In this document: in pieces, positions 2,911 to 29,774 of the stretch
How positions within the stretch are numbered: position 1 is the stretch's first letter
Layout of the letters: each line of letters begins with the position of its first letter
Assembly (NCBI RefSeq): GCF_000009705.1
Contig: NC_003276.1
Coordinates: 150,001-182,000 of the forward strand
Reading direction: 5' to 3'
DNA: 32,000 nucleotides
Source: Nostoc sp. PCC 7120 = FACHB-418
Lineage (GTDB): Bacteria > Cyanobacteriota > Cyanobacteriia > Cyanobacteriales > Nostocaceae
Notes under the pieces: generated by a model
Databases searched by the model: none
What the model was told of the DNA's origin: nothing
Seen by the model: only the letters and a program-made list of their open reading frames with translations
Made by a program: the position numbers and the translations under genes

Positions 2911-2916
2911 AGGATG

Positions 2917-3429: not shown

Positions 3430-3890
3430 ATTTCAGATTAAGCCAATCTCTGGCAGACCCACAGACAGATTTCTGGTTGGAACACGGCAGCCTACTTTTG
3501 ATGCACCCTGGTTGCCAATCTACGCATCTGCACCAACTACCGAAGACAAATAAGGTTGTTGGCACTCGTATCAATCTTACCTTTCGTCCACATACAGGCG
3601 GTAAAAGATAAGACCAAAAAATCCTAAACGGAGGTTTTCTGCATCAGCCTAATGATAGACGTTTATCAATTTGTATGAGGGTTAATTGCTTGGTTAATTA
3701 GAAAATATAATTTCTCAAACCATTACCTTACAATGCTTTCTGGCTTTAATACCCTAATTGATGAGAATACTTGCCCTTAGTTAGATTGTTTAAATCTGCG
3801 TTACAGGTTAGATTAACTCAAAATATTAGTACATGGGTACTGTTAAAGATTTAGCTCTCATTCATAAAACTTAGATATTTATCACACACT

Positions 3891-4133
3891 TTGGTTGCCA
3901 AACATAGAGACAGAATAACAAGATTCGGCTTGAATTATATTAAGCTTCTGTTATCAGCCACAGGTAAAAGACTAGAGATTGTGAATGATGCTGACAACGG
4001 AAAAGATGAGCTAATGCAGGATTTAGTTTCTGTAATTACCTCATTTGTGCAACGCATTTATGGATTGCGAAGAGCAAAGCGTAAAACGGAGAAAATCATA
4101 GCAGAACTGCATCGCAATGGAGCAGAAGAATGA
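3891..4133 (+). pseudogene. tnpA: IS607-family serine-recombinase TnpA, C-terminal remnant (N-terminal HTH and catalytic Ser region missing)
   Basis: ..KHRDRITRFGLNYIKLLL..IEIVN..DELMQDLVSVITSFVQRIYGLRRAKRKTE matches the C-terminal part of IS607 TnpA. Upstream sequence is AT-rich with stop codons. There is a 4-bp ATGA overlap with tnpB at 4130-4133. Confidence 0.75.
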
Positions 4134-5356
4134 GATTAGTAGAGCGTCATATTGTCAAAACAAATCATCAATTTTACAAAGAAATAGATGATTTAGCATG
4201 GCGTTCTAAGAATCTGTATAACTACGTCAACTATTTAGTTCGGCAATCATTCATTTTTGACGGTAAGTATCTCAATAATGCAGCCATATTCCATCTAGTA
4301 AAACACCATGAATCATACACAGCTTTGCCAAGAAAGGTAAGCAATCAAGTATTGATGGTGTTGCACCGGAATTGGAAATCATTTTTTGAGACACACAAAG
4401 CTTACAAGCAAAACCCGTCAAAGTTCAAAGGTTGTCCGAAATTGCCCAAGTACAAAAATAAAGAAAAGGGGCGAAATATCGTAATTTATGAACTTGGTGC
4501 AATTTCAAAACCGTTACTAAAACAAGGAGTAATCAAATTATCTCAAACTGAAATCCAATTTCCCACAAAAGCCAGCAACATTCAGCAAGTGCGCCTAATT
4601 CCCCAGTGCGGACAGTATGTAGTTGAAGTGGTGTATTTGCAAGACGCAACGCCACAACAATTAAATCCTGATTGGGTAGCTGGTATTGATATCGGATTAG
4701 ATAATTTAGCGGCGTTAACTTCAAACAAGCCCGGATTCAAACCAGTTCTTGTTAACGGACGACCACTAAAAGCTATCAACCAACAATATAACAAAGCTAA
4801 AGCTCGTCTGCAATCTCAACTCAAGGGTAACGCTAAAACATCACGCCGGATTCAAGCATTAACTTGCAAGCGTAACAACCGGATTGATAATTATCTGCAC
4901 AATGCCAGCCGATGGATTATTAATCACTTAGCTAGTGCGGGTATTGGTACATTGGTGATTGGTAAAAATGACCAATGGAAACAAGAAATTAATCTGGGTA
5001 CAACAACTAATCAGAACTTCGTGAGTATTCCTCATGCGCGGTTTATTGAGCAGTTAAAATACAAAGCTGAATTAGTTGCTATGACCGTTTTGATTAACGA
5101 AGAAAGCTATACATCGGCTTCATCATTCTTGGACTTAGATCCAATCCCAGTTTATCAAGAAGGCGTGAAACATAGTTTTAGTGGCAAGAGAATCAAAAGG
5201 GCTTGGTACCAATCTGCTAATGGAAGATTTATCCATGCAGATATTAACGCTAGTCTGAATATAACAAGAAAGGTAGTCCCTGCGGCTTTTAGCTTAGGGA
5301 TAGCGGGTATTGCAGTTTGCCCTTCTCGGATTACTCCGGGTAAAGTAGCGATTTAG
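4130..5356 (+). CDS. tnpB: IS607-type TnpB RNA-guided endonuclease lacking a zinc ribbon
   Basis: 408 aa. RuvC-I GIDIGLDNLAA, RuvC-II INEESYTS and RuvC-III HADINASLNI are present. There are no Cys pairs between RuvC-II and RuvC-III (SYTSASSFLDLDPIP...). Confidence 0.9.
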   Translation: MRLVERHIVKTNHQFYKEIDDLAWRSKNLYNYVNYLVRQSFIFDGKYLNNAAIFHLVKHHESYTALPRKVSNQVLMVLHRNWKSFFETHKAYKQNPSKFKGCPKLPKYKNKEKGRNIVIYELGAISKPLLKQGVIKLSQTEIQFPTKASNIQQVRLIPQCGQYVVEVVYLQDATPQQLNPDWVAGIDIGLDNLAALTSNKPGFKPVLVNGRPLKAINQQYNKAKARLQSQLKGNAKTSRRIQALTCKRNNRIDNYLHNASRWIINHLASAGIGTLVIGKNDQWKQEINLGTTTNQNFVSIPHARFIEQLKYKAELVAMTVLINEESYTSASSFLDLDPIPVYQEGVKHSFSGKRIKRAWYQSANGRFIHADINASLNITRKVVPAAFSLGIAGIAVCPSRITPGKVAI

Positions 5357-5452
5357 GATATTTGTCCATAAATCTACTAACTGTCAGTCACTAATAATAT
5401 AGATATACAAACTCAAGTTGCTGACACAACACCACTCCCCAGTAATCAGGGT

Positions 5453-5680
5453 ATGGACGGGCAAGACAACCTCACTGATTCATGGTGGGGGCAGGTCAAA
5501 TCTTACGCTACGCTTGCGATGCCACGGGTAGAGCATGGGGTGGATTCGGTCAGAGAGTTCCTCAGTACCCTTACAAGTGACGAGCGTTGGGGCGTGATGA
5601 TGGCGATTGATGAAACACAGCCGCAGTTGTTTGAGCAGTTGGTGGCACAGGCTCCCGATTGGGTGCTTTGGTTGGGGTGA
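5453..5680 (+). CDS. Hypothetical 75-aa protein; its last ~20 codons form one copy of a direct repeat
   Basis: Open frame only. Its 3' end (5619-5680) is duplicated at 6361-6422. Confidence 0.4.
   Translation: MDGQDNLTDSWWGQVKSYATLAMPRVEHGVDSVREFLSTLTSDERWGVMMAIDETQPQLFEQLVAQAPDWVLWLG
5619..5680 (+). repeat. Direct repeat copy 1 (left flank of the TA cassette)
   Basis: AGCCGCAGTTGTTTGAGCAGTTGGTGGCACAGGCTCCCGATTGG... matches 6361-6422 with 3 mismatches in 62 nt by my manual count. Confidence 0.9.
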
Positions 5681-5694
5681 AGGGTTGGGTTAGC

Positions 5695-6030
5695 TTAAAG
5701 CTCTTCATCCAATTCACTAAGTATATTTGCTAAATCCCTTGCTCCATGAAATACCCGAAGAATTTCAATCGTAGTATTTTGAATACGATAAAAAACTAAA
5801 TAATCCTGAAAATCCTTGACACGCCATTGTCGGATTTCACCTAATTTCGATACCACCAACTGCGTTACCTTCCCCATTCCAGGATTCTTTTGCAACTGAG
5901 CAAATGTCGTTTCGGCAGCATTTAAAAATTTAACAGCCACATCTGCATTCCCATTGACTAATATGTAGTTGGCTAGGTGCCGCAAATCTTCGGTTGCCCG
6001 GTCTTTGATGATCAACCGATAGTTCATCAC
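5695..6030 (-). CDS. parE: Type II toxin, RelE/ParE family
   Basis: ~110 aa. It overlaps the upstream antitoxin gene by 4 bp. The sequence pattern (YRLII..A..DL..I..YI....A..F......L...P..G......G.R.W.V..Y.VFYR......I.I.RV.HGARD) is ParE-like. Confidence 0.85.
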   Translation of the reverse strand: MMNYRLIIKDRATEDLRHLANYILVNGNADVAVKFLNAAETTFAQLQKNPGMGKVTQLVVSKLGEIRQWRVKDFQDYLVFYRIQNTTIEILRVFHGARDLANILSELDEEL

Positions 6031-6284
6031 TCACCTGAATCACTTAAGCTGTTCTCTCCTAAAATGGTGCAACGCAAATTCTGCCAGTATTCGGGTGTTA
6101 CTTCCTGACCTGGAGAATCAATGCCTTCTTTCAAAAGTGCTTCTAAATTCGCTTGCGCTTTGTGTTTTTGGTCTTGTTTAACTAAAGCTAGGAAGTATTC
6201 GCCAATACTGTTATAAGCACCTGTCACCACTTGTGCCTCCACATAAACGCGTACTTCATCAGGTATATCAATATTGATATTCAT
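6027..6284 (-). CDS. parD: Type II antitoxin, ParD-like
   Basis: 85 aa, located upstream of and overlapping the ParE-like toxin gene. N-terminal MNINIDIPDEVRVYVEAQV.. followed by ...EALLKEGIDS fits ParD/COG3609-type antitoxins. Confidence 0.8.
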   Translation of the reverse strand: MNINIDIPDEVRVYVEAQVVTGAYNSIGEYFLALVKQDQKHKAQANLEALLKEGIDSPGQEVTPEYWQNLRCTILGENSLSDSGE

Positions 6285-6360
6285 TGGCTTTCAAGCATGA
6301 CTACTCTAATTATTTTAGCCGACCCTTTCGTTACGGGTTGATAGGGAATAAAAGAGAATG

Positions 6361-6422
6361 AGCCGCAGTTGTTTGAGCAGTTGGTGGCACAGGCTCCCGA
6401 TTGGATGCTGTGGTTGGGGTAA
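6361..6422 (+). repeat. Direct repeat copy 2 (right flank of the TA cassette), an orphan 3'-end copy
   Basis: It keeps the same reading frame and stop codon as copy 1 (..PQLFEQLVAQAPDWMLWLG*), but an in-frame TAG lies a few codons upstream. Confidence 0.9.
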
Positions 6423-6624
6423 GTTTTGGATTTGGGGCGATGTATGCGGCAACGTCAGAGGCGAACGCGCCGAGGCTCAGATGAACTACCCCTGGCTACT
6501 TCTCCGAGGAAGGAAATTACGCGAAATTTGTTAAATTGTTAAAATATATTGAAAGCAGTCCTCAACACAAAATCACTCAAAAGACTCTAATTTTTTCTAG
6601 AACAAGGAGCAACAATTACTCTTC

Positions 6625-8514
6625 ATGTTCAACCTGCGTGATTACCAACAAGATTTAATTTCAAAAACTTTTGCTGCGTGGTCTAGTGGAATTAGAAAGG
6701 TATTATTACAACTTAGTACAGGTGGTGGCAAGACAGTCATTTTTGCGGAGATCGCATCTAAGATGACAGCCCAAGGTGAAGGTGTATTAGTAGTTGCTCA
6801 CAGAGAAGAGTTAATTCTCCAAGCAGCAGAAAAACTGACAGCCGTGACCAAATTGCAGCCAGGAATCATCAAGGCTGGTTACAAATCTACTGACTCGCCC
6901 CTTCAGATAGCAAGTATCCAAACTCTTGCTCGTCGTCAAACTTATCCATCTGCACAACTAGTCATTATTGATGAAGCTCATCATTCTAGTGCTAACAGTT
7001 ACCGTAAATTACTAGACGCTTACCCCCATGCACTAGTTTTAGGGTTGACAGCCACACCAAGAAGAGAAGACGGATATGGATTGCGAGATATTTTTGATCA
7101 CCTAATTTGCTCTGTGTCTACCAAAGAATTAATCACTTTGGGGTATTTAACAGACTATAAGTTAATCGCTGGTTTTAAATATTCTCGACATAAAGTTCCT
7201 CAAAAACGCGACTTTACTAGAAAAGAATTAGAAGAAGTTGCTTCTGACTACAAACCATCTGAGGTGTTAAAACAGTGGCAGAATTTTTGTGCTGGTAAGA
7301 AGACAGTAATTTTTGCTGTTAACGTTATGCACTCCAAACAAATTGCCGCAGCATTTTGCGCTGATGGCATCACCTGCGAACATCTTGATGGTGAAACGCC
7401 CCATAATGAGCGTCAAGCCATTTTAAACCGATTTCGTAGTGGACAAACACAAGTTATCAGCAATTGTGCAATTTTAACTGAGGGTTTTGATTGCCCCGAC
7501 TCTAGTGCTGCCGTCATTGCTAGGCCAACCAGTAGCGTTACTCTCTGGTTACAGATGATTGGTAGAGTATTACGTCCTGCACCGGGAAAAGATTATGCCA
7601 CTATCTTAGACATGACTGATAACTGGTTTCGGCTAGGTCGTCCCTGCGACAATAGAAAATGGAGCCTTGAGCCAGTTTCTTGCGACCCAGATACTCAAGG
7701 AAGCAGGTGTTGCCCTCATTGCCACCATGTTTTCAAGCCAATGCCTAGTCTGATTCGCACCAAAGATTGCTTTAGTTATGAAAAAGCCGAATTTGTCATT
7801 CAATATGAGGTAGATTGCCCCAATTGTGGCAAATCTTTTAGATGGGTATTAGAAGAATCTTCTACTATAGAAAATTCTGGCGTGCCGATGATTATTTCTG
7901 AATCTGATATTCAGTTTAAAGAAGTACCACCCGAAGTCCGTCCATCTTTACTCACGCCAATTATTGAAGCTAAAAAGCGCAAGTTTAGAAATCAAGAAAA
8001 GAAATTAGTATTTTATGGTTTTACGGTTAGAGATTGGTTTTTAAATTGCCAAGAACTAACTCTTAGTGAGCTAAATTATGCTATTGAGCTACTTGAGTGT
8101 CCAGAACAAACATTTGAATTAAGTATAGAATCTTTAGTCTACCGTCTACGAAATGCTCAAGAATGGACAGACATCACCAAAATTATGTCTGAGCGTCCTG
8201 AAAGTATAAAAAAACTTATTTGGAGTAGATTATCCCATTACGAAAAAAATAAGTTTAAAAAGATGAAGGCTGATTATGAAAATCTGATTAATGAACTTCA
8301 GGATTGGTTAACTGAAGAAAATCTAGCATTAGTCGCGGATTATTTGTCAGATTGTCAAGACATCAGCATGATTTCTTCTTTGCGTGAAATTTATCACAAA
8401 TTAATTATTAAAGCAGCCATTGACCGTGTATCTCAAGATAAACGCGACCAAATCAGTCAGTGGGTTGCACAATTAGAGAGGCGAACAGAATTTAAAAACT
8501 TGTATTTCAGTTGA
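6625..8514 (+). CDS. SF2 DEAD/DEAH-box (ResIII/RadD-like) helicase with a C-terminal zinc ribbon and an unknown ~200-aa helical domain
   Basis: Motif I STGGGKT, motif II DEAH, motif III TATP and motif VI QMIGRVLR are present, followed by CCPHCHH...CPNCGKSF. I recognise nothing in the C-terminal third. Confidence 0.85.
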   Translation: MFNLRDYQQDLISKTFAAWSSGIRKVLLQLSTGGGKTVIFAEIASKMTAQGEGVLVVAHREELILQAAEKLTAVTKLQPGIIKAGYKSTDSPLQIASIQTLARRQTYPSAQLVIIDEAHHSSANSYRKLLDAYPHALVLGLTATPRREDGYGLRDIFDHLICSVSTKELITLGYLTDYKLIAGFKYSRHKVPQKRDFTRKELEEVASDYKPSEVLKQWQNFCAGKKTVIFAVNVMHSKQIAAAFCADGITCEHLDGETPHNERQAILNRFRSGQTQVISNCAILTEGFDCPDSSAAVIARPTSSVTLWLQMIGRVLRPAPGKDYATILDMTDNWFRLGRPCDNRKWSLEPVSCDPDTQGSRCCPHCHHVFKPMPSLIRTKDCFSYEKAEFVIQYEVDCPNCGKSFRWVLEESSTIENSGVPMIISESDIQFKEVPPEVRPSLLTPIIEAKKRKFRNQEKKLVFYGFTVRDWFLNCQELTLSELNYAIELLECPEQTFELSIESLVYRLRNAQEWTDITKIMSERPESIKKLIWSRLSHYEKNKFKKMKADYENLINELQDWLTEENLALVADYLSDCQDISMISSLREIYHKLIIKAAIDRVSQDKRDQISQWVAQLERRTEFKNLYFS

Positions 8515-8771
8515 TATACATAATTGTGATTTGAAATAAAAAATGAGATTTTAACTCATGATATGGATTCAAAGCATAATCACTGATATTGTTTCTTTGT
8601 AGCTTTGAGGAAATCAATTTATTGAAGTATTTGATAAAAACTGGCAGAATTATCCCAGAAAGTAGCTTGAGAAATCATGCTTACTTGAGGCTTAACTTAT
8701 CTACATATTCTACTATTAAACAATTGACATCCTCCCAGCACGCCACTACGTTTTGTGCGGGGATTCCCACA

Positions 8772-9995
8772 TCACTGCGAGACTTTCCTCTTTCGCCGAG
8801 ATGACTTACCTAAAGAAGTCGCCTTCTCCAAGCAGGGGTCAAACTCTCCAGAGGCGTGCTGAATTCCCGAATGTCCATCGGTATTTTTAAATAGTTCTAA
8901 TCCTTTGTTAAGGATATTAATACTGGCATTTAAGTCACGGCAAGCAGTGTATGAGCAGTTAGGGCAAATATGTGTTCTGGTGCTGAGAGTTTTGTGGACT
9001 TGATGCCCACAATTCGAGCAATCGATACTCGTGTACGCGGGTGACACAGCAACAACAACTCGTCCATACACCTTGCCGAAATACTCCAGCCACTGGGTGA
9101 AAATACTCCAACTGGCATCAGAAATACTTTTCGCTAGTTTGTGGTTTTTCAGCATATTCCGCACCTGTAAATTCTCATACGCCACAAAGTCTGCCGACTT
9201 AATTACGCTCAGTGCTTTCTTAACGCACCAATCTTTACGCTGGCGTTGCAACTTCAGGTGTTTTCTACCCAATCTATTTCGTGCTTTAGCACGATTTTTA
9301 GATCCTTTGGCACAATGAGACAATCTACGTTGTGCCTTTTTTAATGCTTTCTCGGATTTGCGTAGAAACCGGGGATTCTCAACTTTGTTGCCATCACTAT
9401 CTGTGTAGAAATGAGTTAGTCCAAGGTCAAGAGCAAGAGATTTACCAGTGGGTTCTAATTGCTCTTTTCGTTCGTGGTCAATGCAGAATTGGATGTATAT
9501 TCCATCTGAACGACGCACAATTCTGACTCGCTTTATTTGTTTTACTTGATAGTAATTTAAGTCACGGGTTCCCCTCAATTTCATCGTTCCAATTCCCAAC
9601 TTATCTGTGAATGTTATATAGTTGCGGCAATCGGATAGTGACCAACCACTTTGCTTGTATTCAACAGATGCTCTGGTTTGGAGTTTACGAAAACGAGGAA
9701 AACCCTTTTTGCCCGGAATCTTGTTTTTGCAATTATCAAAAAACCGTGCAATTGCTGCCCAGGCACGTTCTGCCATCGCCTGCCTTGCCGATGAGTTTAA
9801 TTTTGATACCCAAGGAAACGCAGGATTATCTGACAGAACTTTCGTATATTTATTCAAATCGTAACCGTTCTTCGCATGACCATCTATCCAATAGCGCAAG
9901 CAAGAGTTTCTAACAAAAAGAGCAGTTCTCAAAGCTTCATTCACTTTGAGTAACTGCTCTTTTGTTGCTTTTGCTTTTGCTTCGTAGATTATCAT
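8772..9995 (-). CDS. tnpB: Solo TnpB RNA-guided endonuclease (IS200/IS605 family, no adjacent tnpA)
   Basis: 407 aa. RuvC-I LALDLGLTHF, RuvC-II AYENL, zinc ribbon CSNCGH...CPNC and RuvC-III RDLNASINI are present. Confidence 0.9.
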   Translation of the reverse strand: MIIYEAKAKATKEQLLKVNEALRTALFVRNSCLRYWIDGHAKNGYDLNKYTKVLSDNPAFPWVSKLNSSARQAMAERAWAAIARFFDNCKNKIPGKKGFPRFRKLQTRASVEYKQSGWSLSDCRNYITFTDKLGIGTMKLRGTRDLNYYQVKQIKRVRIVRRSDGIYIQFCIDHERKEQLEPTGKSLALDLGLTHFYTDSDGNKVENPRFLRKSEKALKKAQRRLSHCAKGSKNRAKARNRLGRKHLKLQRQRKDWCVKKALSVIKSADFVAYENLQVRNMLKNHKLAKSISDASWSIFTQWLEYFGKVYGRVVVAVSPAYTSIDCSNCGHQVHKTLSTRTHICPNCSYTACRDLNASINILNKGLELFKNTDGHSGIQHASGEFDPCLEKATSLGKSSRRKRKVSQ

Positions 9996-10104
9996 GTGTT
10001 AGCTGAATTACTATCAAGTAGTCTACCATATTTACTATTAAAAACTCAACTATCCCTGGCACTTATCTCGCTACGCTCGATTTCGTTCCAGGGGTGTTTC
10101 GTTT

Positions 10105-10164
10105 TTAACCGCTACACGACCCCAGGTGCAGCGATAGCGGAACCTGGGGTCTTGTAGCGGTTAA
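10105..10164. repeat. Long imperfect palindrome (23-bp stem with 1 mismatch, 14-nt loop)
   Basis: TTAACCGCTACACGACCCCAGGT (10105-10127) pairs with ACCTGGGGTCTTGTAGCGGTTAA (10142-10164). Confidence 0.8.
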
Positions 10165-10167
10165 GAT

Positions 10168-10206
10168 AAAAAAACCGTGGTTAAATTTTTAGCAACCACG
10201 GTTTTT
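10168..10206 (-). terminator. Rho-independent terminator for the Bax-inhibitor-like gene (bidirectional shape)
   Basis: AACCGTGGTT (10173-10182) pairs with AACCACGGTT (10194-10203), flanked by an A-run and a T-run. On the minus strand the stem is followed by T7. It lies ~40 nt past the stop codon at 10246. Confidence 0.75.
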
Positions 10207-10245
10207 ACTTGATAAAACTTTACTTGTGTTAGCGTCTACAGACAA

Positions 10246-10973
10246 TTAATCGCGGCCATTGATGGCAATTAGCAACCGCAAGATAAAGACGAACAAGTTG
10301 ATGTAAGTAAGGTACATCGACAAAGCAGCAGGCAGATATTGGTCATCGCTGTAAGTACGGGGCAAGATGTAGAAATCAACAACAGAAACCCCAACAAACA
10401 GGAATACTCCTAAACCGGAGATGGCGATTTCTAACCAATTTGGCGTGTAAACACCAAACATGGCAAACCCAAATTGGACAAGGCATACAACCAGCAAGGC
10501 GATAACGCCGAGATTGATGGTTTTTGTCAAAGCCATGCCATCTTGTTCAGAAAGATTTGAACCAATTTGACGAGCAGCAATAAAGGTAACGCCACAACCA
10601 AGGGCAGCTAAACAATACCTTGAATGCCAACACCTTGGGATCTCAAAGCGACATAAACCAAGCCACTGAGAGTATACCCAGACAAGAGACTGTAAGTTGC
10701 CAGCAGGGGTAGTGCAAGACCCTTGTTACCTTTTTGGGCCACATTTTGGGCCACAAAGAACAAAATTAACTCTACAATCACCGCACCAATGAAGGTAGGA
10801 AAGAATATTCCGGGGTTAGTACGGATAACTCCCAAACCGCCGTAGGTTCCTAATGCGGTTAGCACCAATCCACCACCGACGTAGGGAAGGGCGTTGGCAA
10901 TTACGTTTGGGCCAACGAGGGCGTGAGATTTAGCCTCACGGATAGCTTCACGAAAATTACTGGTATTGCTCAT
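10246..10973 (-). pseudogene. Bax inhibitor-1/YccA-family membrane protein, split by a 1-nt frameshift
   Basis: ORFs 10608..10973 and 10246..10536 are the two halves of one multi-pass membrane protein. The downstream frame stays open back through ..LAALGCGVTFIAARQIGSNLSEQDGMALT... Adding one T to the GTTTAG run (plus-strand AAA at 10610-10612) restores a single ~243-aa frame. Confidence 0.75.
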
Positions 10974-11176
10974 ATTGAAAAACTGTTTTTTAGGAAAACG
11001 TTGTGCTTATTCCTATTGTTACCAATCTTTGCGGTTAATAGCCAAGGATTTAATCTTGTTGCAAAATCTGAAAGGTAGCTTCGTTGTTAAAAATTGGAAT
11101 CCTCAGAGAATGATGATTCCACAGGATCTTTAATACTGATAGCATACTCTTTAGTGAGACAAGAGCAAGAATATCG

Positions 11177-12588
11177 GGTTCTTGCGCCTGTTTTATGGAG
11201 AATTAATACTAAAGTGCCAGTTTAATAAACTGCGTAAACGGAAATTGTTGAAGTTACGGAAACCATATCCAAGACGTTTAATCAGCTTAAGTTTATTATT
11301 AATACCTTCTACAGTACCACTGGTAGTTCTACCATCAAAATAACCAACTATTTCCCCAAACCATCTAATCATTGTTCCGATAGATTTGGGAAAAAGTAGC
11401 ATGGCATCATACATCCAATCCAATAATTGAATGATGCTATCTCCCCAATATGTGTGAGATTCAAAGATTTGTCTAAATTTTTCTTTCAAGGAGTGCATCT
11501 TTGCTAGAGTTGGTGATACTTCTTGGACAGCTTTCAGTCTGATTTTTTGCTCTTCGTTTAACGAGTCTTCATTTTTAATCAAGCTATATTTACTTTTATT
11601 TAATCCCGCTAATATTCGTTCTTTTTCTGATTTATCTTCTAAAGACATTGCTGCTTTTTTCTCGGATTTACGTATTGTATCTAATTCATCATTTACCTGT
11701 TTCATCACATGAAACCTATCAGCAGTTATATTTGCATTGGGCATTAATTCTTCGACTAGACTTTTATAAGGAGACCACAGGTCTATACTCACTTCTTGGA
11801 TTTGCTCAAGTACCTTTAATCCCCATCCTTTCATGACTTCACCGATTTCTTCTATCCTTCTTGTCTTCACTATCTCAATTGGTTTACGAGTATCTAAATC
11901 TACTATTACTGCCAGATAATTTCCTTGCCCTTTCACTAAGGCTATTTCATCTATTCCTAACCTTTTTAATCCTCTTAAATTTATCTTCTGTATTTGGGTT
12001 ACTTGCCTTTTTAACATCGATTCTACTTCCTCATCACTGAGGTCGTTTCTTTTAGCCACGCTATGAATGTTGCTATTCAATACTTGCTCTACTATGTTAG
12101 CTGCTAATCTTTTTGTATATCCTTTGCTCTTTTCTACAAACTCTAGTTTCTCACTAAACACTTTTTTACACTTATGGCATTTAAATTGACGACGATTTAT
12201 TTTTAACAGAACTGGTTTTTCACTCCACGGTAAATCGTGAATCATTCGCCAATGGTCTTGGTGTATACTTTGAGTTACATTTCCACAATTTGGACAGCTA
12301 CAATGGTTGACGGCTTTTTCGATTGTGATAATTATTCCTGCTCCTTCCACTTCTTGACAATCTAACACTTTCGTCTCTGGTAGATTGAGGATTTGCTCTA
12401 CGGGAAATTTCATAACTATCGCCGCCAATTCCTGTGCTTGATCTATAATTATCTTACTTTCGGTAATTAAACATACCTTCAAAGCTGTAAAGTATTGTAT
12501 CTACTCTAGTTTAGGCTTCAATCTTTATAAATTTTATCCATTAATTTTCATTACTTTTTGCTTTCTCCATAAAATATCCGAAAGAACC
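11177..12588 (-). mobile_element. Complete ISL3-family insertion sequence (1412 bp)
   Basis: The terminal inverted repeats are GGTTCTTGCGCCTGTTTTATGGAGAA (11177-) and the reverse complement of 12563-12588, GGTTCTTTCGGATATTTTATGGAGAA (22/26 match). A perfect 8-bp target duplication GAATATCG lies at 11169-11176 and 12589-12596. Confidence 0.85.
11193..12413 (-). CDS. ISL3-family DDE transposase
   Basis: N-terminal zinc finger CPNCG...CHKCKK, then GIDEIALVKGQGNYLAVIVDLD, DRFHVMK and C-terminal TSGTVEGINNKLKLIKRLGYGFRNFNNF. The track start is 12482; the family-typical start MKFPVEQILNLP is the ATG at 12413. The stop codon lies inside the inverted repeat. Confidence 0.9.
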   Translation of the reverse strand: MKFPVEQILNLPETKVLDCQEVEGAGIIITIEKAVNHCSCPNCGNVTQSIHQDHWRMIHDLPWSEKPVLLKINRRQFKCHKCKKVFSEKLEFVEKSKGYTKRLAANIVEQVLNSNIHSVAKRNDLSDEEVESMLKRQVTQIQKINLRGLKRLGIDEIALVKGQGNYLAVIVDLDTRKPIEIVKTRRIEEIGEVMKGWGLKVLEQIQEVSIDLWSPYKSLVEELMPNANITADRFHVMKQVNDELDTIRKSEKKAAMSLEDKSEKERILAGLNKSKYSLIKNEDSLNEEQKIRLKAVQEVSPTLAKMHSLKEKFRQIFESHTYWGDSIIQLLDWMYDAMLLFPKSIGTMIRWFGEIVGYFDGRTTSGTVEGINNKLKLIKRLGYGFRNFNNFRLRSLLNWHFSINSP

Positions 12589-19693: not shown

Positions 19694-19707
19694 AATATAC
19701 CTTGCGC

Positions 19708-19776
19708 TTAGTTATCCAACAGTCCAAAGCTTAGGATTAATAATTCGCGTTGCATCGGTTTGAGAGGTAGGAGTGT
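19708..19776 (-). pseudogene. Orphan fragment of a group-2 sigma-factor gene (start of region 4)
   Basis: The minus strand reads *TLLPLKPMQRELLILSFGLLDN*. The core 19711-19764 is 51/54 identical to 28956-29009 inside the intact sigma gene. Confidence 0.7.
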
Positions 19777-19858: not shown

Positions 19859-20698
19859 TCATATTAGGCTTTGATTTTTAGTTTTGACTCTTTGATAAAG
19901 TTCTTCCATTGTTTCTATAAAGGAATTATCTTTGTGCCAGAAAGCTGGGAAGTCTCCTTCCTTTTTAACTAAAATTGCTGAAACTCCGCTATCATTGGCG
20001 ACTTCAATAGTAGATGGTAAACGTTTTGCACCTAACCAAAACTCTCTTAAGTGTGGCTTGTCCGTAACAGTTTGTTTTTCAGGCGTTGTGTAAAAAGATT
20101 GACTCGGTTCAATAGCCCATTCTTGTTCATCTAAAACTGTAGATAGTGCTTTACCTAAAGGTGAATCAGCTAGTTTAGCTTGTAATTCTACTTTGGTAAG
20201 CCCCCTTAATTCAAATAGTAAAAAGGGGTTGCTATCAAGTTGAGAAGCTACTAAATAATAAACTCCAGCTATGTGCTTACAAGGGTTAGCATAATCTGGA
20301 CAAGAACATTTAGTTTTAAAGTCATTGCTACTATGCGGTAATAAGTGTAACCCCATTTGAGAGAATATTTCTTCAATATTTTCAGGAACTTCGTTTAATA
20401 ATAACCGCGAAACAATACTCGCTTTGGAAGAAATATTTTTGATGGCTTCATTCCAACGGGTTTTGGCAATGGGGGTAATTTCAATGACTATATTATATGT
20501 GGGTTCTTTGTAAACTCCAAAATAAGGATTCACTGAACCTCTAACTTTAGCTGTGATGATATTTTTACCAATATCAAAGCTTTTAACTTTACCACCACGA
20601 GCATAGGAGCGTCCTCTTTGTAGGCGACCATCATCGGTAAAATCTTCTAGTGCTTTGATAAAGCGATCGCCCCACCAAGTTCTGCTAAACTTATTCAT
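19859..20698 (-). CDS. SWIM zinc-finger protein
   Basis: 279 aa with the CxCxnCxH motif CSCPDYANPCKH. The start codon lies 5 nt after the SNF2 stop codon. Confidence 0.85.
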   Translation of the reverse strand: MNKFSRTWWGDRFIKALEDFTDDGRLQRGRSYARGGKVKSFDIGKNIITAKVRGSVNPYFGVYKEPTYNIVIEITPIAKTRWNEAIKNISSKASIVSRLLLNEVPENIEEIFSQMGLHLLPHSSNDFKTKCSCPDYANPCKHIAGVYYLVASQLDSNPFLLFELRGLTKVELQAKLADSPLGKALSTVLDEQEWAIEPSQSFYTTPEKQTVTDKPHLREFWLGAKRLPSTIEVANDSGVSAILVKKEGDFPAFWHKDNSFIETMEELYQRVKTKNQSLI

Positions 20699-20703
20699 AA
20701 TAT

Positions 20704-23700
20704 CTACTCCATAATTGTGCTTTTATTCAAGGCAATTAGTTTCTTAAAGGCTTCGTTATCTAATTCGGTTAGCCACGATTCATCACTACCAACTACGGCG
20801 GAAGAAAGTTTTTTCTTATCTTCAATCATTTGGTCGATTCTTTCTTCTAAAGTCCCAAGGGCGACAAATTTATGTACAAACACATTTTTTTTCTGACCTA
20901 TGCGAAAAGCGCGGTCTGTGGCTTGGTCTTCAACGGCTGGATTCCACCAACGGTCAAAATGAAAGACGTGGTTGGCTTTAGTTAAAGTAATCCCCACGCC
21001 GCCAGCTTTTAGGGAAAGGACAAATACAGATGCTTCCGTATCAGGATTTTGAAAGTCACTAATCATTTGTTCCCGACGTTGGCGACTTGTACCCCCATGT
21101 AGGTAGTAGGTATTGCAATGTAAGTTGTGTTTGAGATATTTTTCTATTTGTTCGCAGACTTCTGTAAATTGACTAAATATTAAAAGACTTTCTCCTTCAG
21201 AAATGGCTTCATCTACCATTTCGACTAAGCGGGAAAGTTTGTGCGAGCGCTCCGGTAAAAATTCGCTATTATCTTGGAGGAACTGTCTGGGATGATTGCA
21301 AATCTGTTTTAATTTCATCAGCGTTGAGAGAATTAAACCTTTGCGTTGTATTCCCTCAGCTTCTTGCAATTTTTCTTCCACATCTCTGACTACCACTTCA
21401 TATAGCGAAGCCTGTTCTTTGGTGAGGTTGGTATAGAGTTTTTGTTCAACTTTATCTGGTAAGTCTTTAATAATTGATTGGTCTGTTTTGACCCGTCGTA
21501 AAATTAACGGTTCAACCAGTTTCTTTAAGGTAGTCGATTTTACTTTATCGTTGTCCTTCTGGATGGGAATTTCAAAGGATTTGCGAAACTGTGCTTCTTT
21601 CCCTAAATAACCGGGATTGAGAAAATTAAAAATTGACCACAAATCAAGTAAGCGGTTCTCAACTGGTGTACCAGTTAAAGCTAGACGGTGTTTAGCACTG
21701 AGTTTGAGTATAGCTTTAGTCTGCGCTGCTTTGGGATTTTTAATGTTTTGTGCTTCATCTAAAACTAACCGTTGCCATGTCACACTATTTAGGAGTTTTT
21801 CATCTAAGCGAGCCAAAGTAAAGGAACTTATCACCACATCATGCTGTTGACAGGCGGACTTAAACTCCGCAGCATCTTGCAGGCGATCGCTACCATGATG
21901 CACCATAGTTTTTAAATGGGGTGCAAACTTAGCAATTTCTCTTTGCCAGTTACCAACAACCGAAGTCGGCGCAATTAATAATGTCGGTAATGGGGAACTT
22001 TGGCTATCTTTCTCCTGTACTAATCTCGCAATTACCTGCACGGACTTACCCAGTCCCATATCATCGGCTAAACAGCCATTTAATCCCAATTTTTCTAAAT
22101 ATTGTAACCAGGCTACACCCCGCTTTTGATATTCTCGCAGGTTGCCTTGCAAATTTAAGTCTTCAGAAATTGGCTCTAGCTGACTCTTATCTTGTAACTT
22201 TGCCATTATTTCTGATAAAGCTGCATCATATTCAATTTCCCAGTCATCTTCCCCTTGGGCGCTGCGTTGCATGAACTCTAACAAGCTCATTTGGGGCTGT
22301 TCATCGCCGTGGGACTGCCAAAATTCTAATAACTGCTGCATTTTATCCCGGTCTAATTCCATCCATTGACCGCGAAAATGCACTAGTGGTGCTTTAGTAT
22401 TAATCAATTGTTCCCATTCTTGAGGTGTGAGAGTTTGCTCTCCAATTGCTAATTCATACTGATACTGCACTAGTGAATCTAAACCGAAATAACTTTTGCT
22501 TTCCCCTACCGTAGCAGCTACCTTGCGACCACTAGAAGCTTTGAGGCGGATTTTCGCACGACGACGACCAGCCGGAGTATACCAAGCCGGGACAATGACC
22601 TTAAATCCTGAGTCTTCCAACACCCAAGCACTATCTTTGAGAAAATCAAACGCCTCATCTAAACTTAGCTGCATTCCTGTGGGAGAGTCCGTTTCTAAAC
22701 CTTGCCAAAGTTTGGGATACATTCTTGCTGCATAGCCTAAATTCAGCAGTAAATTAGTATCGAAATCTTTGCCAAACTCTTTATGTACACCAGCTTTGGT
22801 TTTGGAATTCATTATCCAGTAATCTGCCAAAGCTAATTTTAGAGACGGATCTTTTTTACTTGATACTAAAAATTGCATCTGCCAATTGTCAATTTGTTCA
22901 GCATCAGGTGAATGTAATTGGAAGCAAAGATGAAATGGTGATTCAGCTTGAGTACGGATAATCCTGTTTTTCCATCCCAACCACTGCTGATACTCTTGGA
23001 GAGCAGTATGGGTTTTGAGTGGGTTGTGTTTTTGGGGATAAAGACAATAGTGAATTAAAGAATCATCAATTTGTTTTTCAAATGCTGCGGTCAATGGTGT
23101 CTTACTCACTAAATTATTAAGCAGATACTCGCTGAAGTGGCGTAATAGAGTTTCTGGAGCAAAAAATTCTAATTTATCAGTTTGTGTGCTGTTACCTGCT
23201 ACACAAATCAATGGCATATATTCAATATATTTTTGAATATTGGCTTCGTATTGCTCGGAAATTATTTCCCAACCAGCATATATTTCAAATCCTGGGGGTG
23301 GTTGTTTAGGTTTTTTCTTTGTAGTCGCTGCGTTCGCTCTATATTTTAAAGATGGAATATATTGATCCTTAGTAATTATTTGTCTAAATGATTGCGTATA
23401 ATGATACCAAAATAATAAATCTGACCCTAATTGAAATTCACTAGCATTGTACAGGGCTAAAAAATGAATATCTTTGAGTAATTTAATAATATTAATTGCT
23501 ATCACTGCTTTCACAGAAGTAACAGTTTCATAACAAGTTACCTGCCAATATTGAAAATTTTCATACTCTTCAGGAACTTCTACTTCTAAATATTTGACTA
23601 ACTCTGGTGAAGGTAATGGCTCATTATTAGCAGTTGGTAGGGCAAAATATTTAGAACATATCCGTTGTTTTAATTGCGCTTCAGTTTCTTTAATCCCCAA

Positions 23701-23871
23701 AGTTTGAGTCAGAAAATTGAGTAATTCAAGAGAAGATAGATGTCCGGGATGAACTTGTGTATGAGTACGCTTTTTGTTATTAATCGGAGTTTCTACCCAT
23801 AGATAAAATGCTCCAGACTGCACAAAATCGCTATATTGGTTTGGTATCCACGAGCCATGAAGGACTTTCAT
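20704..23871 (-). CDS. SNF2-family helicase/ATPase with a long N-terminal SNF2-associated region
   Basis: 1055 aa. Motif I is LADDMGLGKS, motif II is DEAQNIKN and motif III is LTGTPVENRL. The helicase-C motifs are SLKAGGVGITLT and DRWWNPAVEDQATDRAFRIGQ. Confidence 0.9.
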   Translation of the reverse strand: MKVLHGSWIPNQYSDFVQSGAFYLWVETPINNKKRTHTQVHPGHLSSLELLNFLTQTLGIKETEAQLKQRICSKYFALPTANNEPLPSPELVKYLEVEVPEEYENFQYWQVTCYETVTSVKAVIAINIIKLLKDIHFLALYNASEFQLGSDLLFWYHYTQSFRQIITKDQYIPSLKYRANAATTKKKPKQPPPGFEIYAGWEIISEQYEANIQKYIEYMPLICVAGNSTQTDKLEFFAPETLLRHFSEYLLNNLVSKTPLTAAFEKQIDDSLIHYCLYPQKHNPLKTHTALQEYQQWLGWKNRIIRTQAESPFHLCFQLHSPDAEQIDNWQMQFLVSSKKDPSLKLALADYWIMNSKTKAGVHKEFGKDFDTNLLLNLGYAARMYPKLWQGLETDSPTGMQLSLDEAFDFLKDSAWVLEDSGFKVIVPAWYTPAGRRRAKIRLKASSGRKVAATVGESKSYFGLDSLVQYQYELAIGEQTLTPQEWEQLINTKAPLVHFRGQWMELDRDKMQQLLEFWQSHGDEQPQMSLLEFMQRSAQGEDDWEIEYDAALSEIMAKLQDKSQLEPISEDLNLQGNLREYQKRGVAWLQYLEKLGLNGCLADDMGLGKSVQVIARLVQEKDSQSSPLPTLLIAPTSVVGNWQREIAKFAPHLKTMVHHGSDRLQDAAEFKSACQQHDVVISSFTLARLDEKLLNSVTWQRLVLDEAQNIKNPKAAQTKAILKLSAKHRLALTGTPVENRLLDLWSIFNFLNPGYLGKEAQFRKSFEIPIQKDNDKVKSTTLKKLVEPLILRRVKTDQSIIKDLPDKVEQKLYTNLTKEQASLYEVVVRDVEEKLQEAEGIQRKGLILSTLMKLKQICNHPRQFLQDNSEFLPERSHKLSRLVEMVDEAISEGESLLIFSQFTEVCEQIEKYLKHNLHCNTYYLHGGTSRQRREQMISDFQNPDTEASVFVLSLKAGGVGITLTKANHVFHFDRWWNPAVEDQATDRAFRIGQKKNVFVHKFVALGTLEERIDQMIEDKKKLSSAVVGSDESWLTELDNEAFKKLIALNKSTIME

Positions 23872-24022
23872 CAGAACCTCCGTTGAGTCCTACCTTTGAA
23901 ACAAGAGTGCCAGAATGGCGTTTCCAAAAAAGGTGACGTTTGTTGATTACTTTACCAAAAACCGTGTTCTGTGCTGCTAAAGTTAGGAAGTTTTTTACAT
24001 ATAGACTAGTTTTTGACTGCTA

Positions 24023-24667
24023 TCAAGGCTCAACAGTATTCCTTAATCGCTTTTTAAGATCGCGGACGGCAGCACTTGAGTTACGTTCGTAAGCAATCTG
24101 CACACAACGAACTATGGTTTGTGCTAAATCAAAGTTAGGAAAATAACAACTATGAGTTTGCAGTTGGTAATTTTCACCTTGTAGTTGATGAATTAGTAAC
24201 TGCTGATTTCTGAATAACCAAACTTCTCTTACACGATAGGGCAGATAGTCTTGCACATCAGAATAACTGGTGACATCAATTTCGATAACTAAATCAGGTG
24301 GTGGGTCTTGTCCCCAGTCGATGCGTTTTTTCCCTGAGACTGCCTGCCAATTATCAATATAAAAGCAGTAATCTGGCTCAATGCCGCTTTCTTGGGGTAA
24401 GCTCATGGTTACAGGTGTAAACGCATCATATTCTCGCTCATCGTGATCTAATAAAGCCATCACAATGTTAGCCAGTAAATGAGCATCTCGACCGTGTACT
24501 GGTAATGGCGACATCAGCAATACTTCTCCATCACGGTATTTTATACGCGGTATTGACCCATCTCCTCGTTGACTGCATAAATGCTGATATTCTTGCCAAC
24601 TGGCAGGCAAACGTACTACAGCACCAGGAGGTAATTCAGTTTTGTCTGGAGAAACAAGAGCAAACAT
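24023..24667 (-). CDS. Uma2/DUF820-family PD-(D/E)xK endonuclease
   Basis: 214 aa. The motifs W..Y..L......RI.Y..GE..LMSP...H, then EPDYCFY, then PPDLVIEIDVTS are typical of the Uma2 proteins that are abundant in cyanobacteria. Confidence 0.8.
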   Translation of the reverse strand: MFALVSPDKTELPPGAVVRLPASWQEYQHLCSQRGDGSIPRIKYRDGEVLLMSPLPVHGRDAHLLANIVMALLDHDEREYDAFTPVTMSLPQESGIEPDYCFYIDNWQAVSGKKRIDWGQDPPPDLVIEIDVTSYSDVQDYLPYRVREVWLFRNQQLLIHQLQGENYQLQTHSCYFPNFDLAQTIVRCVQIAYERNSSAAVRDLKKRLRNTVEP

Positions 24668-26669: not shown

Positions 26670-26943
26670 TATTCTAAATATATGGCTGAACTTTGAAATG
26701 CCTCTTCTGGTGTTCCATAAAAAGTACCATTATTAAATACACTAGGCTCGTATTTTTCATTGCTGTATGTGTAAAAAGCTTTTGTCCACTTTTCCTCATT
26801 GCCTTTGTAACGCAATCGACAAAGGTGAATTGGAGTATTCCTGGCTCTTTCTAAATATTCTTCAAGCGTTACTTTAAATAATGACGGGTCATAATTATCT
26901 GGAATGAATGGCTCTTTGTACGCATCTATGTAACAGAAATATC
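26669..26943 (-). pseudogene. C-terminal part of a small IS-disrupted gene (DUF3024-like by recollection)
   Basis: It reads (GYF)CYIDAYKEPFIPDNYDPSLFKVTLEEYLERARNTPIHLCRLRYKGNEEKWTKAFYTYSNEKYEPSVFNNGTFYGTPEEAFQSSAIYLE*. After the IS and one target-duplication copy are removed, it continues in frame from 28621..28770. Confidence 0.7.
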
Positions 26944-26961
26944 CTAGCGTGGCAAAACTTA

Positions 26962-27708
26962 CTAGAGAAGACGACTCTCTAGATTAGCCAAGTAAGCCTT
27001 GGGGTCTCTGCGAAATCGATACTGTTCAATTCTGGCTTTGTGGTGTTTTTGCAATTGAGAGCGTAATTCGAGCCAAGTATGAATATCAACTTGTGCTAAA
27101 TCAGATGCGGTAAAAGAATGAAGCTTAGTAGCTATCGCACAGGCAAGTTTGACAGAACCACGAATAACGAGAGATGAGGGGGCAACCTTACGACCGGTAC
27201 AACGACGTTGATGATAACGTAGCATACCAAAAGCGTGTTCTAAGTCATTATTAGTTCTAGGAAAATCTTCAATTTCATAACAATGAAAAAGTCCAGACCA
27301 GTAGCTGTGGGTGGTTTTTATAAAGTTATCGATTGCAGTGTTCAGGGTACCAGCTTTCTGCTTTTGTTGAGACATTTCTGTCAACAGTTGCTGATAACTT
27401 TGTTTGACCCCAGCAGCATCAAGACCTATTTTATTGTTGAGAATATTACTAGCTTTATCAACCCACTGATATGCAACCCTCACAGGTGAAAATAAAGATG
27501 CAGTAGCAGATAATCCCTTAGCTAGAAGGTGTTTTAGGTTAACTAAAGGTGGTGGTAAAGCACTTCTTTTTTCCATCCTTTCTAAGCTTTGTTCTATCAA
27601 AGTCAAATTTTCTTGTAACTTTAATCCAGATGCCTCTAACGGTGGATGTCCATCATTGGTTATAGAACTACGGACTGCCGAGCAATAATCTTCAATAATA
27701 GTCACCAA
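26962..27708 (-). CDS. Transposase, C-terminal part (frame stays open upstream to the A10 tract)
   Basis: This frame continues upstream as ..KKKVRGLREIERSVTNEDKDLVTIIEDYCS.. It is offset by +1 from the N-terminal part at the A10 run (plus-strand T10, 27760-27769). Confidence 0.7.
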   Translation of the reverse strand: MVTIIEDYCSAVRSSITNDGHPPLEASGLKLQENLTLIEQSLERMEKRSALPPPLVNLKHLLAKGLSATASLFSPVRVAYQWVDKASNILNNKIGLDAAGVKQSYQQLLTEMSQQKQKAGTLNTAIDNFIKTTHSYWSGLFHCYEIEDFPRTNNDLEHAFGMLRYHQRRCTGRKVAPSSLVIRGSVKLACAIATKLHSFTASDLAQVDIHTWLELRSQLQKHHKARIEQYRFRRDPKAYLANLESRLL

Positions 27709-27754
27709 ATCCTTATCTTCATTGGTAACACTACGTTCAATTTCTCGTAATCCT

Positions 27755-28543
27755 CTAACTTTTTTTTTTCAATTCCTTTTTTGCATTTCTATCCGCCTCA
27801 TATATGGGTTTAATTGCTTCTTTCAGGTAATGGTAATGACATAAACCATGAGCAATTTTAGGTAATGCTAACCCAACAGCTTTACGAATTGATTGTTGTC
27901 CATCACTAACAACTCCATCAATTGGTACATCCAGTGTATTAGCCACTTCTAATAATAACGCTACTAAATCTTCATTCCTTGATGATAATAAAGTTTTAGC
28001 AAGTAAAATTTCTCCTGATAGACAATCTCGAATTACCCATAATACCTCATGTCCAATTTCTGGCTGCATCCCATCAATGGCTAATATCACCCGTCCTTGA
28101 TTAGCCACTATTGCTTTTAATCTTTTATGGTCTTTTAGCCATAAAGAAAGTAACTCGTCATATCTGTCAATTAAGTGTGTGACCGTTCGTTTACTTATAC
28201 ATATACCTTTTAATTCAAGGTGAGTATGTATTTGAGGAACACTTCTATGTTCCTGGTAGCGTAATGCTCCTATATAAGCAATCACATCCAAACCAAATTC
28301 GTTCTGTGGTAGAGCGAGTGACCCTTCTTGCTCTGGTCGATATGCTTTTTTATACCGCATACATGACTTATTTTGACATCGCCGAATTTTTAGCTGTAGT
28401 TCTACTACCCCATTTAGCGTTCTTATATGTCGAGGATTATTGTATTCATTCCACATTGCTTGACCACACGAAGGGCATTTTTTTTGAACACAATCGAGTA
28501 CTTCAAACGATGTTGCTTCTGGTTTTAAACTTTTTCTTACCAA
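27755..28543 (-). CDS. Transposase, N-terminal part (zinc finger plus the start of the DDE domain)
   Basis: CPSCGQ...RRCQNKSC, ILAIDGMQPEIGHEVLWVIRD, GVVSDGQQS and LCHYHYLKEA resemble the IS66-type D...D...CwAH layout. The ORF ends KKELKKKS* inside the A10 run. Confidence 0.75.
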   Translation of the reverse strand: MVRKSLKPEATSFEVLDCVQKKCPSCGQAMWNEYNNPRHIRTLNGVVELQLKIRRCQNKSCMRYKKAYRPEQEGSLALPQNEFGLDVIAYIGALRYQEHRSVPQIHTHLELKGICISKRTVTHLIDRYDELLSLWLKDHKRLKAIVANQGRVILAIDGMQPEIGHEVLWVIRDCLSGEILLAKTLLSSRNEDLVALLLEVANTLDVPIDGVVSDGQQSIRKAVGLALPKIAHGLCHYHYLKEAIKPIYEADRNAKKELKKKS

Positions 28544-28620
28544 GTTTTTGTACCATTATTTCGTTACAAGCTCAAGATTACAGGATCTCTGCTCCTCTCT
28601 AGTAAGTTTTGCCACGCTAG

Positions 28621-28770
28621 GAAATATCCCTTAAACCTTACATCAATACGTATATATTTTCCTGAATAATGCTGTTCAGCATAAGCTAATATTCGTTGTT
28701 TCGTTCTTTGCTTGACGTTATCAGGAATCTTAACTCCTCCCGAATGTGGATCATTGACCCATGTTCTCAT
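28621..28770 (-). pseudogene. N-terminal part of the IS-disrupted small gene
   Basis: It reads MRTWVNDPHSGGVKIPDNVKQRTKQRILAYAEQHYSGKYIRIDVRFKGYF and then the frame runs into the IS inverted repeat. Confidence 0.7.
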
Positions 28771-28823: not shown

Positions 28824-29774
28824 TCAAGAAGTTAGATACTGCCCAATCGATGGCTGTTGACGACGCAGAGCAGTCATTGCTTTTTGCTGGATTTGGCGCA
28901 CTCGCTCTCGGCTGAGATTTAGCTTTTCACCAATTTGGGCTAAACTTTGCTCTTGGTTATCCAACAGTCCAAAACGTAGGATTAATACTTCGCGTTGCAT
29001 CGGTTTGAGTGATGCTAACAAATCACTTAAGTCTTGGCGCAACATTTCGTGAGTAATGTTTTCGTCTGGCGAAACGCCCTCAGAGGCTAAAAGTTCGCTT
29101 AGTTCTGTTTCTTTGTTATCCCCTATTTTCAAATCTAAAGAAATTGTCCCACTGGCAACCTTGAGGTATTCTCTAATTTGGCTAGGTTCTAACTCCAATT
29201 TTTGGGCAATTTCTGCCACAGTAGCACGACGACCCAAGGTTTGAAAAAATTCGCGCTGTACCTTTTTGATTTGATTGAGTTTTTCGTTAACGTGAATCGG
29301 TAGCCTGACTGTGCGAGATTTTTCGGCGATCGCCCTGGTGATTGCTTGCGTTACCCACCAATATGCGTAGGTTGACAGCTTGTAACCTCGGTTGGGGTCA
29401 AACTTTTCTATTCCCCTTTGCAACCCGATTGCTCCCTCTTGAACCAAATCTAAGAACTCTAAGTTACGGCGCTGATATTTTTTGGCGATAGAAACTACCA
29501 GCCTCAAATTTGCGGTGATCATCTTTTGCTTGGCTCGTTGACCAAGCTCAAGTATTTGATTGACTTGGGCTTCAGTTTTATTGAGGAAATTAGCTAATTC
29601 TAACGTTGTTGGTTCTCGCTCCAGTTTTTGAGTAAGTTCATGCTGTTGCTCTTGGAGGGCAATCATTTGCTGTACAAGCCTGGCATAAGTTATTTCTTGG
29701 TCAGAGGTTAACAAAGGGAACTGACCAATCTCTTGCAAATAGATGCGTACCAAATCCGAACTCAGGCTAGGCAT
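28824..29774 (-). CDS. Group-2 (RpoD/SigA-like) sigma-70-family RNA polymerase sigma factor
   Basis: 316 aa. Region 2 is DLVQEGAIGLQRGIEKFDPNRGYKLSTYAYWWVTQAI, region 3 is present, and region 4 is LKPMQREVLILRFGL...SLAQIGEKLNLSRERVRQIQQKAM. Confidence 0.9.
   Translation of the reverse strand: MPSLSSDLVRIYLQEIGQFPLLTSDQEITYARLVQQMIALQEQQHELTQKLEREPTTLELANFLNKTEAQVNQILELGQRAKQKMITANLRLVVSIAKKYQRRNLEFLDLVQEGAIGLQRGIEKFDPNRGYKLSTYAYWWVTQAITRAIAEKSRTVRLPIHVNEKLNQIKKVQREFFQTLGRRATVAEIAQKLELEPSQIREYLKVASGTISLDLKIGDNKETELSELLASEGVSPDENITHEMLRQDLSDLLASLKPMQREVLILRFGLLDNQEQSLAQIGEKLNLSRERVRQIQQKAMTALRRQQPSIGQYLTS

Follow-up and report, generated by a model that had tools for sequence, protein, structure and literature searches.

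We analysed a window of 32,000 nucleotides (nt) from Nostoc sp. PCC 7120 = FACHB-418 (assembly GCF_000009705.1, contig NC_003276.1, positions 150,001-182,000, forward strand; positions given below count from its first letter), in which a gene for a large SNF2-family ATPase is followed by a gene for a smaller protein with a SWIM zinc finger, a module named after SWI2/SNF2 and MuDR. The pair is inherited as a unit on the chromosome or on large plasmids, the latter in several Nostoc strains, and its neighbourhood varies. With a little more confidence than an even bet would deserve, we read the pair as a two-subunit translocase on double-stranded DNA that remodels or strips protein-DNA complexes for its host. 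Directly observed here are the domain content of both proteins, the order and coupling of their genes, the breadth of the family, a natural fusion, and the lack of a nuclease and of a defence context.

The ATPase, its SWIM partner and their pairing

The SNF2-family ATPase is encoded on the minus strand (20704-23871) by an open reading frame (ORF) of 1055 amino acids (aa), with a GGAGG ribosome-binding site ahead of its ATG, and comprises a family-specific region (residues 1-565) and a motor (residues 581-992, 20896-22131). Pfam resolved the motor into SNF2-rel_dom (residues 581-862, E = 2e-73) and Helicase_C (residues 878-992, E = 5e-22), and the helicase motifs are intact, as the original prediction for this stretch had reported, with DDMGLGKS, DEAQ, LTGTP and QATDRAFRIGQ all present in the translation. 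The best PDB match of the motor was SsoRad54 (1z63, residues 568-1049, 474 bits, E = 1.2e-140), followed by INO80 (262 bits, E about 1e-76), and by these match scores, which rank the matches and are not a phylogeny, the motor appears nearer to SsoRad54 than to other Snf2 subfamilies. The window pair also shows features by which the SSO1653/SsoRad54-like subfamily is recognised, namely an Snf2 motor with intact helicase motifs I-VI and a SWIM protein whose gene adjoins that of the ATPase or is fused to it; the SSO1653 subfamily has been described as including sll1366 of Synechocystis and YwqA of B. subtilis (PMC2677860). We infer that the SNF2 protein belongs to this subfamily and that, by homology to SsoRad54, for which this activity is known (PMC2677860), it would translocate along double-stranded DNA without separating the strands.

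Within the subfamily, the protein scored below the cut-offs of two NCBIfam models. The N-terminal model of the sll1366 intein-prone helicase (NF058636) aligned end to end (its positions 1-589 with residues 1-609) and returned 278 bits against a cut-off of 550, which eight further homologues with 45-57% identity likewise did not reach. The SCO1167/SCO6262 helicase model (NF058637) returned 668 bits against 1200 over residues 210-1048. Because both scores lie under their cut-offs, the SNF2 protein represents a sister lineage rather than an ortholog. The SNF2 gene of the window carries no intein; in related SNF2 genes, inteins were considered and rejected, as the split tblastn matches proved to be frameshifts, a deletion or truncations.

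The N-terminal 565 aa (22177-23871, minus strand) were predicted by AlphaFold2 to be a confidently folded, multi-domain alpha/beta region (mean predicted local distance difference test score, pLDDT, 85.9). Foldseek returned no match at E <= 0.001 for this region in PDB and BFVD (best probability 0.13), and a profile search of the PDB sequences gave 0 matches. The original prediction had recognised no catalytic motif in these approximately 560 residues; that part stands, since no catalytic domain was found, but the region is not wholly unannotated, as residues 396-537 (22261-22686, minus strand) match DUF3670 ("SNF2 Helicase protein", Pfam PF12419, E = 1e-43). Apart from the motor, no catalytic domain was detectable in the N-terminal region or in the SWIM protein, and a nuclease domain sought in both proteins with Pfam, PADLOC, NCBIfam and the fold search was not found.

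The SWIM partner (279 aa; 19859-20698, minus strand) consists of a folded N-terminal module (residues ~5-190), which holds the SWIM motif, CxCx6CxH, and of a conserved C-terminal helix, the two being joined by a disordered linker. The motif itself, CSCPDYANPCKH, occupies residues 126-148 (20255-20323, minus strand; Pfam PF04434, E = 4.3e-6). The AlphaFold2 model has a pLDDT of 85.8, with residues 11-190 mostly above 90. Among 48 diverse homologues of the SWIM partner, the zinc ligands C131, C133, C140 and H142 are invariant, as are several N-terminal residues including W9 and G29. The family is broad, with 5047 clusters at 50% identity (E <= 0.001). As with the N-terminal region of the ATPase, the fold search that the original prediction had proposed for the SWIM protein yielded no match at E <= 0.001 in PDB or BFVD, and a profile of the family matched PDB sequences at chance level only (uL29). 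Some homologues (P0200, P0146 and P0203) carry an additional fused part, which is a Ros/MucR DNA-binding regulator in one homologue and TPR repeats or a PRiA4_ORF3 domain in others; such fusions are possible hints at what the partner recognises.

The two genes are separated by the 5-nt spacer ATATT (20699-20703, minus strand), which runs from the SNF2 stop TAG to the SWIM ATG and is consistent with translational coupling. We compared the pair with the best 80 related loci from a scan of one genome per species, each locus from a different species and all of them cyanobacterial. The scan was seeded with a 9-sequence alignment of SWIM partners, which biases the sample toward cyanobacteria; the 48-sequence alignment lacked a conserved stretch usable as a seed, and a second set of homologues, with many partial proteins, is fit for alignment and unfit for counts of occurrence. 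In 77 of the 80 loci, the SWIM gene has SNF2 sequence directly upstream of it in the same orientation, and identity of the SWIM protein across the 80 ranges from 66 to 95%. Where the SNF2 ORF is intact (69 loci, the basis for all counts of spacing and of upstream boxes), the gap is at most 20 nt in 49 loci and exactly 5 nt, the commonest value, in 27. The positions of the ORFs, the minus strand and both gaps of the original prediction (5 nt within the pair and 151 nt upstream of it) were thus accurate, and its description of the pair as tightly coupled, widespread and functionally uncharacterised agrees with the 77/80 loci, with the 5047 clusters and with the literature we searched, in which we found no experimental function for the pair.

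Damage to the pair was also seen. Seven of the 77 loci (L028, L031, L042, L053, L066, L068 and L070) have an SNF2 gene with a frameshift, an internal deletion or a truncation, and the SWIM gene stands without an adjacent SNF2 gene in three (L055, L075 and L077), which may reflect assembly errors or genuine decay of the pair.

The arrangement extends to distant lineages. In three loci whose SWIM protein is 33-34% identical (L085, L087 and L088), the SWIM gene immediately follows a gene for an SNF2 protein of ~1035 aa, the two genes touching or overlapping; DUF3670 is on the Pfam record for the SNF2 protein of L085 and of L087, and there is none on the record for L088. Furthermore, a single profile, phrog_29996, matches both residues 1-168 of the SWIM protein and the DUF3670 region, and QHJ75532.1, a protein from the Wolbachia WO region, combines SWIM, DUF3670 and SNF2 in one polypeptide (32% identity to the window SWIM protein, E = 2e-33; 37% identity to the window SNF2 protein, E = 4e-84). 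The coding sequence of this fusion (L092:6001-8841, phage WO record MN180251.1) stops within the SNF2 domain and may be truncated. Relatives of the SWIM protein occur in just 2 of 50,697 phage records. Taken together, the conserved order, the translational coupling and the natural fusion argue strongly that the SNF2 and SWIM proteins act as a complex.

Proposed activity and alternatives to it

We propose that the 1055-aa ATPase would use ATP to translocate on double-stranded DNA, neither unwinding nor cutting it, and that its N-terminal 565 aa, DUF3670 included, would form a family-specific module for targeting or regulation and for docking. The SWIM protein would be co-transcribed with the ATPase and translated in a coupled manner; it would bind the ATPase and act as the subunit for substrate recognition or gating, through its SWIM module and probably also through its C-terminal helix. 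Transcription of the pair would be driven from its own promoter region, with the upstream Uma2 gene unrelated to it. The complex would then push or strip proteins off DNA, its likeliest targets being stalled RNA polymerase or complexes of recombinase and DNA. Of these, RNA polymerase is slightly favoured because YwqA has been listed with RNA-polymerase-interacting translocases, where it is grouped with the RapA type (PMC7385302). We count in favour of this proposal the links to transcription and DNA binding (the listing of YwqA and the Ros/MucR fusion) and the host-like inheritance of the pair (the identity of the SWIM protein in 80 species, the number of clusters and the rarity in phage records).

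Several points weigh against it. The N-terminal region and the SWIM partner are without structural relatives, so homology does not reveal the target; YwqA has been described as little characterised, with a deletion phenotype that was no more than modest (PMC7385302); and we found no experimental work in the literature on the family in cyanobacteria. In addition, PADLOC gives the motor high scores for ZorD, DpdE and DrmD, which are helicases of defence systems, McrBC adjoins one of the distant pairs (L088), and the window is rich in insertion sequences (IS) and probably plasmid-borne.

The main alternative, which we hold to be unlikely though less so than those that follow, is a Rad54-like accessory role in recombination, in which the SNF2-SWIM complex would work with RecA, remodelling the duplex or clearing RecA from heteroduplex DNA and so promoting strand exchange and repair. 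SsoRad54, the closest solved relative of the motor, is an ATPase dependent on double-stranded DNA; it alters the topology of the duplex, and it binds and stimulates RadA, promoting strand exchange (PMC2677860). The authors of that work detected no homology between its N-terminus and that of the eukaryotic Rad54 proteins, so partner binding is not transferable between relatives of Rad54. Counting for this alternative, six loci have near the pair a gene whose product, assigned to its family by reading the sequence, is a RarA/MgsA-like ATPase lengthened by a C-terminal extension: in L048, L060 and L065 it directly follows the pair in the same orientation (~0.9-1 kb past the SWIM start), and in L008, L022 and L042 it is within 3.4-7.4 kb. 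However, neither recA nor any other recombination gene is consistently linked to the pair in related loci, and no LexA-type box was seen in the 151-nt spacer upstream of the SNF2 gene when it was read by eye, without a formal scan.

Somewhat more doubtful still is the possibility that DUF3670-SNF2/SWIM is a distinct two-subunit DNA-remodelling machine with a bacterial role yet to be described, such as policing or stabilising large plasmids and chromids, or acting against invading DNA with no nuclease of its own.

Surroundings of the pair

We regard it as improbable that the pair serves anti-phage or anti-plasmid defence, with the SNF2 protein sensing or tracking foreign DNA, the SWIM protein as adaptor and Uma2, or a nuclease acting in trans, as effector. 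The PADLOC matches of the large protein to DpdE, ZorD and DrmD (E down to 4e-135) favour such a role, but they cover mainly the generic motor, from approximately residue 460-560 onward, and add up to no system. The corresponding NCBIfam scores fell far below their cut-offs (ZorD: 306 bits against 1500; DrmD: 89 and 63 bits against 950 and 610; DpdE: 41 bits against 500), and the partner genes (ZorA/ZorB/ZorC; DrmA/DrmB/DrmC and the methylase; dpdA-K) are absent from the neighbourhood in the window. The known defence systems were ruled out on these three grounds. Related SNF2 ATPases have been noted in mobile elements (PMC5512222), which, like the McrBC genes beside one distant pair and the IS-rich, plasmid-like context, fits a defence role. 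On the other side, clustering of the flanking ORFs of related loci revealed no recurrent defence gene beside the pair. A patchy spread is typical of defence genes; the best 80 loci, by contrast, come from 80 species at high identity.

The Uma2/DUF820 gene (24023-24667, minus strand; ORF of 214 aa) belongs to a PD-(D/E)xK family (Pfam PF05685, E = 4e-27, 95.2 bits against a gathering cut-off of 27), and its stop lies 151 nt before the SNF2 start. Counted over 83 loci, Uma2 adjoins the pair in three: the window and its two nearest relatives (L001 and L004), which are Nostoc sp. NIES-3756 plasmid pNOS3756_1 and Anabaena azotica. It is absent beside the distant pairs L085, L087 and L088. Uma2 had been put forward as part of the system; with adjacency in just 3/83 loci it is not a third component and was discarded as a member, an adjacency that is not conserved being one of the grounds on which the original prediction had said it would be refuted. 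It is a lineage-specific neighbour outside the conserved module. The co-occurrence check that had been proposed for cyanobacteria thus bore out the SNF2-SWIM pair and did not bear out Uma2. Separately, Uma2 matches over its full length the PADLOC candidate single-gene family PDC-S17 (E = 8e-27), a match that could be cited for a defence role and bears on Uma2 alone.

The spacer between Uma2 and SNF2 contains an extended -10-like box, TGGTAAAGTAAT (23947-23958, minus strand), which is a candidate promoter element. Of the 69 loci, 29 have the string TAAAGTA(A) ahead of the SNF2 start, and most of these are without Uma2; the string lies ~50-53 nt before the start in 22 of the 29, and 83-85 nt before it in the window and the two loci closest to it. 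That the TGGTAAAGTAAT box is common to loci mostly lacking Uma2 hints at a promoter of the pair's own, independent of Uma2.

The immediate neighbours of the pair in the window include two GNAT acetyltransferases, DUF218, MarR, an amine oxidase, two YdcZ exporters and DUF1349, and a sigma factor gene also lies among the window neighbours; none of the immediate neighbours is a defence gene. The original prediction had described a repeat-bracketed block next to IS insertions, as is usual for defence or accessory cargo. The repeat is real (69 nt, 90% identity, direct; 19696-19764 and 28941-29009), but its copies are not the ends of a mobile element. Just downstream of the SWIM gene lies a 3' fragment of a sigma-70 gene (26 codons, residues 253-278; 19696-19773, minus strand), identified by tblastn with the sigma protein, and the second copy falls inside an intact sigma-70 gene (ORF at 28824-29774), 9.2 kb away. 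The plasmid of Nostoc sp. NIES-3756 has a more extensive remnant (residues 253-316) in the same place. Because the repeat consists of a sigma-70 remnant and part of the intact sigma gene, it is a rearrangement scar rather than an element boundary, and a mobile block bracketed by repeats was ruled out; the fragment suggests an old rearrangement between sigma paralogues.

As for the IS insertions themselves, the nearest (26931-28633) has 41-nt inverted repeats that are 88% complementary and is found 2.3 kb past Uma2, while all the others keep a distance of 7 kb or more from the SWIM end of the pair. The transposase of the nearest element spans two ORFs (26962-27708 and 27755-28543; weak match to a MULE domain) and is either frameshifted or made by programmed frameshifting. 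The stretch from 406 to 12482 is rich in IS, with three IS605-type TnpB genes (406-1677, 4130-5356 and 8772-9995), an IS200 TnpA gene (1722-2126) and an ISL3 transposase gene (11193-12482). Between two of the TnpB genes lies an unrelated SF2 helicase gene (629 aa, ResIII and Helicase_C; 6625-8514, plus strand). A Bax1-I family gene (10246-10973, minus strand) is probably a frameshifted pseudogene: one ORF matches the N-terminal half of the Pfam model and a separate ORF the C-terminal half.

Across relatives, clustering of the flanking ORFs revealed no conserved neighbourhood beyond the pair, and neither a context of defence or cargo, as originally suggested, nor a fixed housekeeping neighbourhood emerged: the neighbours vary and are ordinary or plasmid-partition genes. 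The most recurrent are a small ORF of ~100 aa (14 loci) and ParM-like (13 loci), ParA-like (8 loci) and ParB-like (5 loci) genes; other clusters are limited to at most six loci each, including FtsH and a transporter, which recur in five chromosomal loci. The Nostoc loci with the ParM-like gene or the small ORF (L002, L003, L007-L009, L028, L044, L048, L049, L053, L054, L056, L060 and L062) appear, from these neighbours, to lie in the partition region of large Nostoc plasmids. A role in plasmid or chromid maintenance, with the pair aiding replication, segregation or transcription of large cyanobacterial plasmids, is very improbable: the closest match in a plasmid collection is a 447-kb Nostoc plasmid, and in 13-14 Nostoc loci the pair adjoins the ParM-like gene and the small ORF with ParA/ParB nearby, but many relatives are chromosomal (e.g., on records of 7-11 Mb) and have unrelated neighbours such as FtsH, and the distant pair L085 lies among sugar-metabolism genes.

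Comparison with known systems

The window holds an ordinary cyanobacterial copy of the pair, and its value lies in the family as a whole. The SWIM partner alone, with more than 5000 clusters at 50% identity across many bacterial lineages, has no established function, and the N-terminal region of the ATPase and the SWIM module together amount to ~750 residues of well-folded protein without a solved structural relative. Knowing the target of the enzyme would fill a gap in the biology of bacterial DNA and transcription, and would also clarify the prokaryotic roots of the eukaryotic Snf2 remodellers.

ZorD (Zorya), DrmD (DISARM) and DpdE (Dpd) resemble the window ATPase in their homologous Snf2 motors, as the strong PADLOC E-values indicate, but the window SNF2 protein has no Mrr-like nuclease domain and its NCBIfam scores are 3- to 12-fold under the cut-offs. 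The phrog_29996 family and QHJ75532.1 share with the window proteins the SWIM module, DUF3670 and the Snf2 motor at 32-37% identity; they differ in being a single, prophage-associated polypeptide that leaves the first ~370 residues of the window SNF2 protein unmatched.

E. coli RapA/HepA is likewise a bacterial Snf2-like ATPase and a plausible functional analogue, which removes or reactivates stalled RNA polymerase. We know of no SWIM partner of RapA. No RapA family was among the NCBIfam matches at E <= 0.01, where the presence of a RapA model in the library is unconfirmed, and RapA was not among the listed PDB fold matches of the SNF2 N-terminal model, none of which was significant. RapA has, moreover, been classed outside the Snf2 family proper (PMC2677860).

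The window SNF2 protein differs from SsoRad54 by its additional 565-aa N-terminal region with DUF3670, which has no solved counterpart. The closest likeness is to the SWIM-associated SWI2/SNF2 ATPases, which share the SsoRad54-like motor and have the SWIM protein adjacent or fused. The association of SWIM with SNF2 has already been named in the literature (PMC5512222, PMC2677860). Our searches of the literature turned up comparative remarks and the genetics of YwqA, but no study of what a bacterial SNF2-SWIM pair does. The association is therefore old knowledge, and the pair in Nostoc sp. PCC 7120 is a further member of a known, uncharacterised kind.

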